From: Podarcis vaucheri
Taxonomy: Eukaryota
DNA length: 64,000 nt
Assembly: GCA_965113315.1 (NCBI GenBank)
Contig: OZ220364.1
Direction: 5' to 3' (one strand)
Position 1 is the first letter of the stretch; every line of letters begins with the position of its first letter. The notes below the pieces were generated by a model that was not told the origin of the DNA, did not search any database, and saw only the letters and a program-made list of their open reading frames with translations. Of this stretch, positions 4,093-58,754 are shown piece after piece. Made by a program: the position numbers and the translations under genes.

Positions 4093-7000
4093 CTTGATCT
4101 CAGAAATCGGATTGTGTGTTTTAAGAGGAAGAAATGTGATGAGAGATGGGAGTCAGTTTCTGCAACACGGACATGAGCACACTCCTTTCTGTGTCCACAA
4201 TGGGACTTTTCACAAGTGGAAAACTACATGCTGGCAGCCACCTCATGCTCATACAATGTAGGTTTTGTACACATTTTGATTCTGCAGGCTGCTTTTTTAT
4301 ATTTCTTATTTAATATTTTCTAGAATTGAACTTGATTATATCCAAGCACCTGTCTTACAATTGGCAATTCTTACTAGCTTTAATGGAAGAGGGGTAAATA
4401 TATGCATTCTCACAGAAGCATTAATGTGCTTCCAAATGTGATTCATGGAAGACTTGTGAAATGACTGCTGTACATCTTCATTTGTGGCATCCCCCTAACA
4501 TCAAACCATCAGCATCACAGAGCATACCTTACTTACTGCAGTAAGTTACCTGTTCAAATGAGACTAACGCCACTTCTGGCCACATTCTACTGGGCTCTGT
4601 GGATGACAGCACAGACCTAATACACATCAGATGTGAACTGAACCTTCTGTAATTCACAAGAATAGATTCAGCTGATGAAAATTTCAGAAAATCAATGAGC
4701 TAGTCAAGGATGGCCATTCTTGCGCTTGTGACAAGTCAGCCTGACAGCAGGTGATCTATATGCAGGTGTGGATCAGTCCAGAAACTGACAAACAGCCTCT
4801 AATTCTTGTCAACAAAAGTTTTAACACAACATGGATATCTTGATTGCTGTTTGCAATTGTCAGTTAACAAACTTGATCACTTTTTAACATAACAGATTGG
4901 TTGAGACTTTTTCCTGCCTTTGCGATTTGAGGTAAGTTTTTGCAATCTGGGATAAAAAAGAGGATGTCATCAAGCTTTGAAAAATACATAAAACTGTTAT
5001 TAACTGGCGCTCACTGGAGCTCCAGCAGTGAAAATCAATCAGATGTGTGATCTCTCCAACACATCAATGTCACCTTAAGTACTTGGAATTGGAAGGTTAG
5101 GAACATTCTATTCCTTTCTGAGAGTTGTTTTACAACTACGTAAAAGAATAGAAAAAAAACCTGAAAGATCACATTTGTGAGAATTTTATCTAAGCTTCAA
5201 ATAAAATGAAAAGTGGCCAGAAAAGGGGGGGGGGTGAAAGAGAGCTCAGATTCCCACAGAAGCTCCCCTACAGAGTCTCTCTACTATGATACTTTCACAT
5301 ACAACCAGACACCTGTTGAGTATATTACAAATGTTGGGGACAGTCTAGCAGGATGTTCTTTGCAAACTGCAGTTTAAAGATATGGGGCTGTTCAAGAGCA
5401 TGGATTGTATATATAGTTGGTTTAGAAAGGTGCCAGGCAAACAATCTAGGGCCTTTTAGTCAGGGTTAGTGTTTTCATGTGTTACTATGTTCTGTATTTT
5501 TATATGGTAAACTGCCCTGTGAATGTCACATGAAGGGTGGTATAGAGATTTTATAAATAAAAATAAGTAGACTATAATGTGGCAATTACAATGTAAATTA
5601 ACTTCATTTTAAAAATGAAGTTCTATTGCCAAAAGTTCCAACTCACAGTTTATTGAGCAACATTTAATTCTGCCACTGTCCAAGGTGCTGTGTAGAACAT
5701 AGGGCAGGGACCCTGCTGTCTGATGACAACCCTCATTAAATTAAGAAGAGAGCAAGCAGGAGTTGGCCATGGAAGGGAATGCAGGAGAGGAGAATGACTA
5801 GTGCTAAGATGGTTTGGCAGAGAGTTGGGTCTCACCTTTATATACAACTAAGCAGGTTTGCTGCTATTCACATTCTGGCTTGCCTTATAGGAAGATCCAT
5901 GGCTATATGACATCCCCTCTTGGTCATCCCTTATCCCCTTAGCTACCTCATCAAAACAGACTCCGCAAACCTACAAATTTATTGAATGGGACAAGTCTCT
6001 CTTATCTATCCAACAGACTTTTTAAACATGAACATTTAATAAATCAACACAAGGTTTTTTTTAAAAAAAATAAATGCAAGGGTAAAAAAGAGTCATTGCA
6101 GTGTTAAGAGTCTTATAGAAAGTTTAATAGACCATGTTTATAAAATGGAAGAGAAGAAAAGTGCCAGAAATACCACTTGTGTATTTTCATTAAACCTGAC
6201 ATAATTACTAACCTGTTAACATTGATAATGAGCAAGCTGTCTTCGCAGCCCATTTCTATGCAAGACAAAAGGATGAAGCCTAAAACCCAATTGCTTACAA
6301 TTGTTAGATATGTGACTATAACCAGATTTAATGCCTCCTATTTATCGCTGCGCAGAAAGCTATCCAGGGCAGACAGTGCCTAGGCGGCCATTTTACTGTG
6401 GCATGTTGAACAACTGTTTACCAGTTAAACTTTTCACGGGAAGGTTATTGCTTGAAAGTGACAAGAGATCAAAACTGCACCGAGCAAGGGTGGCCTACAC
6501 AGTGCTCTTCAGATGCTGCTGGGCACAAACTCCCATAATCTCTGACCATTGGTCAGGCTGGCTGGGGCTGGTCAAACAACATCTGAAGGGGACCATGTTG
6601 ACTACCTCTGGAATGCAAAAAAACCAATTATTGCTGCTGCTTGGCCCTAAATTGGTAGTTCTGAGATAGCCAGCAGCTCATGTCCTCTTCAATCCAAAGT
6701 GCTGTCTTTTAGCGTTTTAAAATAGTGCAATACCTCACAAGTTGTGGCATACTCCGGGATTCAAATTAGACATAAGGCACTCCTGCCCACAAAAGTTTTA
6801 TTCTGCCACAAACACAGTTGTCAGCTACTGATTCTGTTGCTGCAAAACACATTTACCAACAGAGCATCAAATAGGATAGTATGTTTAACGCATTGTTGCA
6901 TCTCACTATCTTTAATTCAAGAAAACAACCACCCTGGAGGAAGGGAGTTTTAACCCTCTCGCCTAGTGCAGTTTTTCTGAATGAGAGGCTACAGCATAAA

Positions 7001-8762
7001 TAGCAACTTCAGGGGAAAGTTTTTGGGAAAATGGGACAGGGTTGAGTTCCACAGTTCCACTCAAGATGTGTGTGGGTGTTGATGGGGAAGTATACCTGCA
7101 GAAATATGCTTATGCATTTACTGTTTGACCCTAAGCCCACAGTTTGATATTCAAAATAATAATAATAATAATAAAATAAAAAATGGTGTCTTGCCCCATA
7201 ACTCACAAACCTGCTTTACAAGTGGGTGTTTCACAGATTATCATTGAGTTTTTTGGGCACCGATTGGGTAGTGCCAATGACATCACTAGTAATATCAGTC
7301 TTTTGAGGCTGTCTGTTCTACATTGTACAAATCAGGCCTAGTAGCTCACATTCAGCCTTAAAAAAGCAACACATCTCGACAAGGCTATTCCCTGGTGCTG
7401 CAACAATCCCAATTTACTTCTAGGCTTTACATGCAGCTGAGATCTCAAGCCAATGGGATTGGCGTACAGATTGTCCTAGCACAGCAGTAAGACTTAAATT
7501 CAATATAGTGTGAATAGTGGAAGTTGGACCAAAGCTGTGTTAAAGGGCTTTGTGGATTTTCCTTGATACTATACAGTGACATGGGCTCCTCCCAGTTGAG
7601 AAGCAATGCCATGACCATTCAGCCTGGTGCAGCAGGCCAGGCAGAATGATGGCAGGGAGAGCTGGAGCCTGGGAGCCCCCAGTTAATCATCTCAGCTGTA
7701 CAGCCCAGGCAGAGAGCACAGTAAGGCTATAGTCTTAGAGCTTATTCAGAATGTTGGCATCTATTATGCTTAATGCACCATAGCCAAAGGAAGGGTAGTT
7801 TGTGATCACCTTTTGTGCTGGGTAATGATGAGCTTGGGTATCTAATGATTAACTTTATACAATTGCATTCATGCCAGGTCTACAGAAGAGAAATTGATAA
7901 AAGCAATACCTCACAAGTTGCGTCTCCAACGCAGGATGAGTGTCACTACAAAGACACTGCTTCTTATTGAATGCAATGATCTCAACAGGCACACAAGGCA
8001 ATGCTCTGATCCCAACTACTTTGGAACCCGCTTCGACTCTGGTTCTGGGAAAATTTCATACCACATATATTTCATTTTGGAAAGATTTTGGTCCCAAGAG
8101 AGCTACTGGCCTTTCACCTTTAAAAGCAGCGGAGAGCTGGGTCACAGCCAGCTACTACCTGGGGCGGTTTTCTTTGGCAGAAAGAAGCCAAAGTGTTTTG
8201 TTGAAAAATAAATTGCGGGTTGTTATTATTATTATTTTTGCAGGAAGTACACATAAAAAGGATGTAGCTAGAGGGCCTTAGAGAACATTTTATCGATTTC
8301 AACATCCAAGGCAGCAATTTTAGCTTAAGCTGCCTGAAGAAATAGATGGGCTTAAGCAGCCCGTCTTTCTTTGTGCATGCAGATAAACTACTTATTCCAG
8401 ATGATTGGTCCCCTCCCCACAAGGCAGTGGCTTTCCTTGAGTGCAAGAGAAACCAGATATTAATAGAAAGCAGCTTCTCATATGTGAAAGCAGCCCAGTG
8501 AGCCTATAAAGCGAAGACGGGATTGCTTGCTCAGTTAGCCAAATGTATGAAGTGTCTGTCTGCCTTGCTTCAATACAGTGATGAAAACCCAAGATGCTGG
8601 GCACAGTCTAGCCACAGTCTAGTTTAACTCTAATTTTGAAATAAATGGCATTGAAAAGTACTGAACTTACAGCTGGATTGTGTCTATTCCTTGCGGAGTT
8701 TCTTTTTCTTTGCTGCTTTTCTTTTAAAAACATTTTTGTACATGAGTGTGCACGAAAATGAA

Positions 8763-54411: not shown

Positions 54412-56229
54412 CTATTCAATATTTGAAATAACCAATTTCAGAATTATAATACAGCAGGGATAACCATTTGTTCCTTAGTAAGCAGGTCTAAACATTATAT
54501 ACTTCACTATTGCTTGAAATAATATTTTTGTTCTACATTTTTCAAAACTGATAAGATTCTATCTAATAGAATAAGTGCTCACTTTTTAAATGGAACCCTG
54601 TTTTATTACTATTTAAGGTAAGGGTATACAGAATGTAAAGAGCCATTTTCCCTCACATATTTAGCTCTCTTTTCCCATACCCCTCTTCCCACATGTAGGA
54701 ATACCAAATAACAGTTATCTTTTTGGATTAAGTTCTGCTGCATTGGGATACTATAAACTTTCAAGTTACAAATGAATTTTATTTAGATAAAATGGTAGAG
54801 GAAACATTTCCTGCAATTTATATTGCAGGAACAAACCCCAGTAGAATCTGTAGATCATTTTGTTAAAAATTAGATTTTTATTTTTTTAAAGGCTGAATAA
54901 ATCTGGCAAGGCAGCCCAAGGTAAGCATCTGTGCAAGCAAGATAATTCCAGGATTACATTTACATGCAAAACTGTGCTTCACCCTAAAATTTTAGTTTTT
55001 AGTTGTTGTTTTAAATCAACATATAACAAACTAATGTAATAGCTTCAAAATCTGAACTTTTGTACTTTTGTTTCCTGCTCTCTTTCCGTGCTCCCACAGT
55101 GCCACTGTAACATGGTTTACCATTATGTCCTTGTGCCATTACACGGCTTTTTCTGCCCTATCCCAAATAATTTTAAGCAGCCATCGGATACCAACCCACC
55201 ATTCTTGAAATCTCATAAGTGGTTCTAGCAAGGCAGTACAGCTGCAATTCCTAAATCACTATCTTTGAATTCTGCTCATACTAGCTCAAGTCCTCAGATG
55301 GAGATCAGGCAGCCCTAAAGCCACAGAACTATTAGTGAAAAAATGATAATAATGAGAGCAGTCCAGTTGTCATACCGGGCACAAACGTAATAGCACTTAA
55401 ACCTCATTAGGGGGCTGATTGGAAGCACCAATTCAAGGCTGTGGATTACTAACAGCGGCGGCTTTAATGATTGTGACCCCAGAACTGTCAGGTAATGCCA
55501 AAGTGACAGAGCCTGAAATTACAACATTTGCCTCATCCATCTGTACATTTCTAACCAATTAAGAAGCAGAAGGAAATAGACCATGTGTATGACCTGCTTT
55601 TGCCCGAAACCCCCTCCTGCAACAAGGGACAATACAGTTCAGAAAAGATGTCTGTAAAGTGTGATAGGGAACAGAGGATACAGTGAACAAGACAGCTTAT
55701 TCTAGCTAGTCAGCCAGTACAAAGTATTCTAAACCATCTATGAACTGAATGGGGGGGGGGGTATTTGTGAGGGAACCTGCCAATGTATATAGCTTTTGAG
55801 AACCAAGTTTGGAGTCATGGGAGAGAGCTAGGCTAAAGACCCAAATGGCATGCGATTACCTCTGTGTCCCTCTGTCTTTCTCTCTGTCTCTCTCTCAGCC
55901 ATCCTACTTATAATAGAACTGAAATATCAAGCCACCATTCTGATTCCTTATAACCTGTAGGGAGCCCACTGTTGTGATTTTGAATAGCAACCAGGAATCT
56001 TGACAGGAACATCTGTGGATATTCTGTCCAAGTCACAGGTTCTGACACCAATATGCAGCCTGTCAGCCAGAAGCTCCTTGAACAGAGTCTCAAAAAATGA
56101 AGCCATTCCTCCCTCCCACAATATAGCACCCTTTGAACAAGATTCCCTGTGATACTGGCTTTCTTAACACCAAGGACCAGATCCAACAGGCGGCCATTTC
56201 CTTTTTCTGCAAAGCCTTTTTTAATAAAG

Positions 56230-56867
56230 CCCCTTGCGCCAAATTTGTGGTGCGCAAGGCTGTGGTAGGCTGGGCACTCTATCCCCTGGGGTAAGGAAGC
56301 CTATAACTTTTGATTTGCTGACCAGCATGCGCTCAAAGTTGAGGAGCATTTGCTGGTTCAAATATGAAGCACGGCGTTTTTCAGCCGCCTTTTCTTTATC
56401 CTTTTTTGGCGGCCCGAGGGTAGGTGAGGTGGTATTGGAGTTCACCCGCGGCAGAGAGTCAAGGGGACTGCTTTTGCAGGACGTAACTCTATCCCCTTCG
56501 GAGGTGGTCCTGTTTATCTGGAATTCGAAGACAGACCAGTTAGGCAGGGGTGTCACTCTTAGGGTGCCTGCCACTGGAAATAAGGGTCCTTCGCCAGTTA
56601 AGGATACCTCCAGGTATTTGGATCACGGGGGGAGGGTCCATTCCTTTTTCATGAGGATGGTGCCCCGTTGGCTAGGCATCAATTTGCTAAGGTGATGCGG
56701 TAAGCGATTGCAGCTTGTGGTTTGAAAGCAGCAGGTTACGCCCCTCATTCTTCCGCAATGGTGCTGCCACTACAGCAGCTCATTGGGGACTGTCTGTAGA
56801 AAGAATTAAGAACATGCACCGTTGGAAGTCCAATGCATTTTGTGGATATGTGCATAGACATCATTGA
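56230..56867 (+). pseudogene. Tyrosine recombinase of the DIRS/Ngaro element, with frameshifts and an internal stop
   Basis: AAFSLSFFGGPRVGE (Arg), SKTDQLGRG (Lys), PFLFHEDGAPLARHQF, YAPHS/RNGAATTAA (HxxR across a 1-nt frameshift), RWKSNAFCGYV (Trp, Tyr), TGA at 56865-56867. Confidence 0.88.
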
Positions 56868-56900
56868 TCACCCATACTTATATTTGCTTGTCTTCTCTTA

Positions 56901-57448
56901 GGTGTGGCTGCTGTTCGCATTGTGGGCCACAGCATTGTCTACTGGGCCGGTATCAGAGCAAGGGAGTCTGGATTGGACTCAGTCTTGGCTTTCCTCAACA
57001 CGCGCAAGTGTCTTGGCTGTCCAGGCATGGAATGCTGTGGGCCGAATTGCTTCCCCTTGTTCGGAAGCATGTGAGGTTGGAGGGGCCCCCTACAGCTATC
57101 GTGCTGCAGTTAGGGGGAAATGATCTGCTTTCCACGGACTGTTGTTCTTTACGTTTTACAGTTCAAAAGGACCTGGCTGAATTGGCAGAGTTTTTGCTGG
57201 GTGTGAAAGTTTTTTGGTCCCAGTTGCTGCAGAGACGCACCTGGCGTGGCAGTCGCTGTCCGGCCGCCACTGATGGAGCCAGAAAGCATGTTAATAAGGT
57301 GGCAATGAAAGCAGTCATTGCTCATGGTGGTTCTGCGATTGCACACCCAGATATCACCTTCAAGGCGGCCGTCCTTTTCAGGGACAATGGTGTGCATCTT
57401 TCCCCGTTGGGAAATGACACATGGTTAAATTCTGTTGTGTGGGTTTGA
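56901..57448 (+). pseudogene. SGNH/GDSL hydrolase (esterase) ORF of the element, one frameshift near 56970
   Basis: Block I VRIVGHSIVYWA (frame starting 56901), block II HGMLW, block III VLQLGGNDL, block V FRDNGVHLS (ORF 56864..57448 frame). Confidence 0.85.
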
Positions 57449-58754
57449 AGGTGGGGCTGCAGTTGTGAGTGGTTGGCGGCGAGCTTGAGTGCTCGGTGGC
57501 GGTTAGGCATTGGTTTATGGTTTGGTTGGTGGAGGGGCAGTGGTTGAGTGCCTGCCCTTGGTAGGTTGAGTGCCTGCCCCTCTAATGCTGCTGCTGCAAG
57601 GGATTCCGTTAAAGGAACTGGGGGCTAACTATTGCTTGTCCACTCTGTCAAGGGGGCTCGGGCCATAGCAATGAGCTCCTGGTTGCATTTGGGGTGAGGG
57701 CAGGTTCCCTGCTCCGCGTAACCCCCAAGTGTATTCCCCTATTCTGACTTTCGCATCGTGCGAATGTCAGTCTGTCCCCCATGGTGGGGGCAGATAGTCG
57801 CAACCAATGCCTAAACAACCACTCACAAATTTGTATTTCAATAAAGTTGTGGCCAAAATTATGCCAAAAATCTTAAACAAAAAATTCTGTATGATGTGTG
57901 AGTTATTGGGGTGGCCCTGGGGACCTCAACACGCGACTGGTTAAATTGTCTCTCTTTTGCTTGGATTAGCCATTGCCTGCTGCAGCACACATTTAATAAT
58001 GTCAGCCCCTCTCTTCACATTGGGAGGAAATTGATTTAATTAAGTATCTCCATACGCTTAATTCATCTTATAATGACAAAATCATCATGAACAACAGTTA
58101 TGGAAAACAGACATTTTCTGAATTGCCCGGGAAGACAAGTGAAGTAACATTCTAGTCAATACAAATCAAAGGCTTGCAGGATATGTTTTGTGATACTAGC
58201 ATGCAGGACTTTCTCCCGATCCTGCAAATGAGCAGCAAAACATTTTTCATGTGGAACAGCACAACCGAAGCTCATTTGCTGATAAAAGTAAGTCTTAAAA
58301 ATAGCTCCCAACATGCTAATATCCATCAAGAAGTAATTATGTATGTTTAAATTGCTAAAAATCCACACATATCCCTCAATACAGTATTAAAACATTATAG
58401 CTAGCCACTTAAAAAATACTGCCCCATAATTCCATACATGGCCAATAAGAGGAAATTTGGATGGCTTTGAACAAGCTTTGTTAGAAGATAGGAATGGCCA
58501 GAACTAGGGGTTCTTACAATCAACAACTGATACACGCAAAATAGTTCTCCTCCCTATTATATGAATCAGGGTTATCCAAATTTCCTAATTTACTATGTTC
58601 AGTATATAAATGTTCTAGATTATTTGTTATTCCCATAGTTATGGAAAGAGAATTTGGAGACTGCCTCTAAGGACATCACCTCTCAACTGTTCTTAAGTTC
58701 CTCTATTCCAAAGCAATAAGGAAATGAACAGAAGTTCTCTCCTATGCTCCAAAC

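Follow-up and report, generated by a model that had tools for sequence, protein, structure and literature searches.

The SGNH hydrolase encoded at the 3′ end of a group of lizard Ngaro-type retrotransposons is very probably made from a spliced message in which its exon follows the first ~220 codons of gag; its reading frame opens at a conserved putative acceptor and has no conserved start codon. The hydrolase ORF of Ngaro elements was already known, and what is new is its expression by splicing, a proposal well supported by comparison of genomic copies. The copy that drew attention to it lies in a 64,000-nt stretch of Podarcis vaucheri DNA (contig OZ220364.1, assembly GCA_965113315.1), hereafter the window. 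A preliminary description of this stretch had offered two routes to the hydrolase, a spliced RNA fused to an upstream ORF such as gag and readthrough of the preceding stop codon. The first is now strongly supported, a phase-matched donor having been located in gag.

Searches of the 1.6-Gb genome recovered full-length relatives in which gag, RT/RNase H, tyrosine recombinase (YR) and hydrolase ORFs follow one another in this order, overlapping, between split direct repeats (A1 ... B1, A2, B2), of which the window has B1 alone. The A repeats measure about 210-223 nt and the B repeats about 386-453 nt, nearly all being 99-100% identical, and A2 is separated from B2 by 158-187 nt. Pfam assigned the RT ORF to RVT_1 (E 8e-13) and matched the YR ORF to phage integrase families at E 0.006-0.04 only, to which an HSFRIG motif can be added. 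DIRS and PAT elements carry a methyltransferase domain, unlike Ngaro elements; no methylase was found by Pfam in the four ORFs of the full-length copy L041, and the RT ORF stops just past RNase H. Judged by its layout, its repeats and the missing methyltransferase, the element is a hydrolase-bearing Ngaro-type retrotransposon, and its nearest named proteins are from lacertid lizards.

The window copy (positions 56180-57937) is 5′-truncated, and its features are collected in Table 1. It is a dead fragment because of frameshifts in YR and hydrolase and the loss of gag; without gag and RT, it also has no donor. The YR ORF does end at the TGA previously reported, and the frame behind it reads SPILIFACLLLGVAAVRIVGHSIVYWA, which runs into the GHS (SGNH nucleophile) motif with no ATG between 56868 and 56933 and holds three Leu residues, not two as first described. 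The strong 3′ splice site reported in this spacer is likewise present and is unusual for an AG: only 12 of the 4470 plus-strand AGs in the window score as high with a crude home-made tract score. One of the two branch-point candidates proposed at the time, CTTAT, sits at the position conserved in the family. The putative exon starts 29 nt upstream of the Ser codon at 56931. The window copy and its sister L002 alone share two small changes: the pyrimidine tract is lengthened by an extra base near 56895, and Trp-Met codons present in L003-L006 have been lost through a 6-nt deletion after 56921. The deletion accounts for the 29-nt spacing in both copies, and it is the insertion that places the window hydrolase in frame with the YR stop. 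This shared frame is a 1-in-3 chance event, not a conserved trait. The spliced mRNA would probably be polyadenylated through the AATAAA at 57840-57845, inside the B1 repeat.

Table 1. Features of the Ngaro-type copy in the window (a slash marks the predicted cut; fold and catalytic residues of the hydrolase exon are assigned from intact relatives)
Feature	Positions	Strand	Remarks
YR ORF, 3′ two-thirds, frameshifted	56180..56867	+	87% DNA identity, from 56180 on, to the closest full-length copies, L032-L034; gaps near 56276, 56625 and 56751; 5′ truncation of the copy falls here
YR stop codon TGA	56865..56867	+	read from the sequence
Branch-point-like CTTAT	56877..56881	+	A 22 nt 5′ of the exon start; at the conserved position of the family motif
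Polypyrimidine tract	56883..56899	+	exceeds that of sister copies L003-L006 by one base
Putative 3′ splice site AG (TAG/GT)	56900..56901	+	phase 1, the first two exon bases completing a split codon
SGNH hydrolase exon (predicted)	56902..57468	+	Ser codon 56931-56933; broken by the 6-nt deletion after 56921 and by frameshifts near 56972 and 57439
B1 split direct repeat	57499..57937	+	matched by B1 as well as B2 in L032 and L033

The acceptor is a property of the whole group. A readable motif was found at 166 of 180 loci, which reduce to 112 distinct contexts and to 24 clusters at 90% identity. Among these related copies of one genome, 107 contexts and 22 clusters have the AG, together with its tract and YAG, exactly 35 nt upstream of the catalytic Ser; the five exceptional contexts are the window copy, L002 and a decayed cargo, described below, in three copies. 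The base 5′ of the AG is a pyrimidine in all 21 representatives. Upstream of the AG extends a T-rich tract with free indels, while downstream of it conservation is of the codon type. Of the 22 family representatives, 21 have the branch-point pattern YTnAY at 21-31 nt upstream of the exon.

A matching donor is found in gag. We aligned 31 gag ORFs, related copies of the same genome that fall into two deep clades and are 33-99.8% identical (L093 and L166, which have no donor region, were dropped, and of 45 loci, 12 were missing either the hydrolase motif or an ORF labelled as gag). The predicted junction codon is a Gly that follows an Arg/Lys-rich, Ser-rich stretch and is written GGT in every ORF. 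The donor reads G/GTACGT in 19 ORFs, GTATGT in 7, GTGAGT in 3, and GTACCT and GTACAT in one each, and its phase is 1 in 31/31, the same as that of the acceptor. Measured against the donor consensus CAG/GTAAGT, it is the best or tied-best site among the 65-97 GTs of each gag ORF. The residue after the Gly varies (Thr, Met or Glu), always in a way that keeps a donor, and the third base is fixed in only 2 of 23 invariant four-fold columns, namely the donor codon and one column in the gag/RT overlap. Splicing here would remove 3358-3474 nt encoding the Gag core with its zinc finger, RT/RNase H and YR, and the second exon would count 190 codons in every one of the 31. In L044 the donor lies at 4279 and the acceptor at 7669. 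The gag stop was considered as a donor site as well and rejected, there being no GT at that place.

It is improbable that the acceptor is real and yet mainly served by a donor elsewhere, either at the end of a noncoding first exon or inside YR. Such a donor would find a counterpart in the donor-like GAGACG/GT that follows the A1 repeat in several copies and in the 7 of 41 NCBI protein models that join YR to hydrolase, some of them at TDQxG. However, GT occurs at TDQxG in only 17 of 38 copies, for which reason this site was discarded as the donor, and its use would cut off the catalytic end of YR; a noncoding first exon would leave no start codon in the clusters that have Trp-Leu or Trp-Ile; and the gag donor is kept without exception.

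In the aligned copies, the start codon of the hydrolase ORF is replaced by the conserved putative acceptor. No position of an in-frame ATG is shared among clusters, and 9 of the 24 have none at all. Met occupies the fourth codon before the Ser in 8 clusters, Leu or Ile being found there elsewhere, and other clusters have ATGs 10-40 codons upstream of the Ser. The earlier statement that the ORF has no ATG needs qualifying in this respect. These Met codons would be the starting points if the hydrolase were translated alone, either by ribosomes that reinitiate past the YR stop or from the transcript of an internal promoter, which we regard as less probable still than a donor elsewhere. Against it speak the lack of a common position, the location of the -4 Met within strand beta-1 of the enzyme (residues 5-11 of the structure model), and an invariant AG and donor that would be left unexplained.

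In the 82 contexts with a locatable YR stop, the hydrolase follows in frame 0, +1 or +2 in 32, 32 and 18 cases, respectively, at a stop-to-Ser distance of 66-94 nt. All three frames are seen among copies with four open ORFs and again in distant loci. A tree of frame changes, given for illustration only since five of its rows were picked for differing spacers, counts 11 changes over its 26 rows, against a mean of 11.7 after shuffling. A YR-esterase fusion made by stop readthrough or ribosomal frameshifting is thus most unlikely: the two ORFs are in frame in the window and in 32 contexts, but out of frame in the other 50, and the frame of the window itself stems from the one-base insertion. The readthrough alternative of the preliminary description is hence refuted as a general mechanism, and the alignment of many copies gives what had been named there as the signature of splicing, i.e., a conserved tract and AG with a variable spacer length; the frame is free. 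A 519-aa open frame at the hydrolase start, examined as a YR fusion, proved instead to be a hydrolase running into a downstream insertion.

The second exon predicts an intact enzyme. Its Ser, Gly, Asn and Asp-x-x-His residues are present in four blocks; over 20 sequences, G11, S13 and G46 are invariant and N76, D165 and H168 nearly so. The structure model (pLDDT 94.8) has the SGNH fold, its top Foldseek matches are GDSL/SGNH enzymes (TM about 0.7), and the best PDB match by sequence is the ZfL2-1 ORF1p esterase 4C1B (E 4e-8). The modelled product is accordingly an SGNH hydrolase and a predicted esterase, with a fold other than that of the membrane-fusion glycoproteins of the retroviral or errantiviral env type. 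With a median dN/dS of 0.18 (79 unsaturated pairs from 19 representatives), the exon is, by this estimate, under purifying selection.

Annotated protein models (XP_077779627.1 is one example) include the predicted product. Among 41 NCBI lacertid proteins found with the hydrolase, 22 join it to the Gag N-terminal half (residues 1 to ~223), 20 of them at the predicted codon; these models are themselves predictions, and the donor was found through them, so they are only partly independent of the genome comparison. Besides the YR-joined models, 11 have other starts and one is without the motif, and several read through the spacer. Three ZNF638-like host models from two lizards use the same acceptor for their last exon, and a fish cold-shock-domain model also ends in the hydrolase (P0019-P0021 and P0070), which suggests exon capture through the acceptor. 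More distant relatives (26-44% identity) are encoded on nineteen metagenome contigs, 15 of them with a YR end just upstream. In the distant animal loci, where the comparison covers the acceptor side, the YAG closest to strand beta-1 on its 5′ side keeps the phase at 16 of 18 (15 of 17 distinct), versus 14 of 35 internal control positions. This nearest-YAG rule was picked after viewing the sequences, and choosing the best-scoring AG instead put only 8 of 12 in phase. At the two loci that fail the nearest-YAG rule, a strong acceptor in the right phase lies 53 nt upstream.

In RNA the evidence is indirect. The donor-acceptor joint is not listed in reads or contigs of the seven runs inspected, so that spliced RNA has not been seen directly; depth at the acceptor was about 1 or less in the raw-read runs X16 and X18, and two contigs of X1 run unbroken across the donor. 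In run X3, tentatively taken to be RNA, one contig ends at 7697 (L044 numbering) and a second begins on the G of the AG, position 7668; to account for the tabulated depth, a further, unlisted record of depth 6.3 must cover exactly 7668-7697. This pattern, seen in one of four runs of one sample, is that expected of a 31-mer graph in which a second path joins at the acceptor, and we take it as one indirect hint. The scored hits of the genome searches, which are lower bounds, included no copy lacking the intron. That the splice signals merely survive from an exon-capture event and expression of the hydrolase has ceased would fit the lack of a listed junction, but is as improbable as readthrough given the purifying selection, the retained catalytic residues, and a donor and acceptor kept across clades whose Gag proteins are only about one-third identical.

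If the gag donor is used, unspliced RNA would provide full Gag and the genome, and a splice of ~3.4 kb skipping the Gag core, RT and YR would likely yield a Gag-N-SGNH protein of ~414 aa. As modelled, this fusion would consist of a short helical hairpin (residues 35-68), a long linker disordered over most of 68-223, an Arg/Lys-rich motif and a confidently predicted, intact esterase; its Gag half had no usable Atlas match. By analogy with ZfL2-1 ORF1p, the Gag N-terminal half, shared with full-length Gag, might tether the esterase to the ribonucleoprotein of the element, and the esterase might direct this particle to acidic membranes. The esterase of ZfL2-1 ORF1p binds acidic lipids, is active and has been proposed to target the RNP to membranes (PMC3905857). 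It has a self-association helix, an Arg-rich motif and an SGNH esterase in this order (PMC3905857), similar to the helix, basic motif and esterase of the predicted lizard fusion. ZfL2-1 ORF1p is, however, a single unspliced ORF of a non-LTR retrotransposon, whereas the lizard fusion would be spliced.

Comparable arrangements are known from other elements. Xenopus DIRS-53_XT and DIRS-54_XT, Ngaro elements of the DIRS order, encode gag, RT/RH, YR and then an SGNH ORF, and share with the lizard element the ORF order, split direct repeats and absence of a methyltransferase (PMC9210276). The accessible text of that paper calls the hydrolase a fourth overlapping ORF of unproven function and contains no occurrence of "splic"; the hydrolase ORF of animal Ngaro elements is annotated as free, whereas the lizard hydrolase would be a 3′ exon joined to half of gag. 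The 158-187 nt between A2 and B2 also set the lizard element apart. In the Drosophila errantivirus gypsy, env is made from a spliced subgenomic RNA lacking gag and pol and encodes a fusion glycoprotein (PMC4276936). Both systems would thus express a 3′ ORF from a spliced RNA that skips the enzymes; the gypsy message lacks gag, whereas that of the lizard element would keep about 220 Gag residues, with an esterase as cargo. Conserved alternative splicing also balances the products of plant Ty1/Copia elements, where the shGAG splice yields Gag alone with early termination, whereas the lizard splice would exchange the C-terminal half of Gag for an enzyme (PMC5580714). Bdelloid Vesta LTR retrotransposons have a GDSL/SGNH ORF3 at their 3′ end, and such ORF3s typically derive from spliced messages; Vesta elements differ in having LTRs and a DDE integrase, and the consulted text describes no Gag fusion (PMC5408684). 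How the Ngaro hydrolase is expressed is not described in the searchable literature, a scope that includes the accessible portions of PMC9210276, PMC7192593, PMC6681497, PMC3783388, PMC9341512, PMC4157794 and PMC3212892.

The YR ORF resembles the hydrolase ORF in having no conserved Met. It opens in phase 1 with YAG/AT (invariant TTTCAG/AT) in 33 of 33 copies, and an invariant pyrimidine run with this YAG/AT (L041:6645-6660 and equivalents) overlaps RNase H codons. The YR-start AG may be another acceptor used by the gag donor, which is no more than a lead, because the site encodes part of RNase H and the phase is dictated by the -1 overlap. A single gag donor might then feed a retrovirus-like splicing programme of animal Ngaro elements in which unspliced RNA gives Gag, the YR-start acceptor a Gag-N-recombinase and the other acceptor the Gag-N-esterase, a tentative scheme toward which we lean rather less than away.

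Several further features of these elements were recorded. The leader between A1 and the gag ATG (L041:2438-3612 and equivalents) is 1.2-1.9 kb long, with the donor-like GAGACG/GT near its start and, in one clade, a YAG right before the ATG; it may be a 5′ UTR intron. The A2-B2 spacer (L041:8904-9078 and equivalents) is well conserved between families and has a similar multi-branch fold in 10 copies from both clades, with z-scores of -0.4 to -2.6 against base shuffles and no Rfam match. A high-copy non-autonomous family (L040 and L045-L048, e.g., L048:2385-9557) combines the A1 of an active family with ~4 kb of decayed Ngaro cargo and an intact YR-hydrolase-repeat 3′ end that is 97% identical to L044 from ~70 nt before the YR-start AG. 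The same cargo recurs in L131-L160 (e.g., L135 and L147; also L180), followed by an (AAAAT)n run and the 3′ end of a different active family beginning ~8 nt before the hydrolase AG; the cargo thus seems to have swapped ends with several families. One copy has seven head-to-tail 442-bp repeats in the gag N-terminal region (L033:1087-4184), and about half of the 104 hits of the divergent clade are concentrated on one contig (G000:C41).

Should the splice be real, the true product of the hydrolase ORF would be a chimera sharing the N-terminal half of Gag, which would be the right protein to express and assay and whose location in the cell could be predicted from it. Its occurrence would also point to convergence with the esterase-bearing ORF1 proteins of LINEs and would explain why the hydrolase exon is the last exon of host gene models. 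The proposal challenges the assumed frameshift-based expression of Ngaro elements; frameshifting was proposed for YR by Poulter and Butler, as quoted in PMC13003380, and the one-donor programme, if true, would replace that model. The esterase would then be a counterpart of matrix or env that is bound to the particle and targets it to membranes, and its conservation would extend from invertebrates to lizards.
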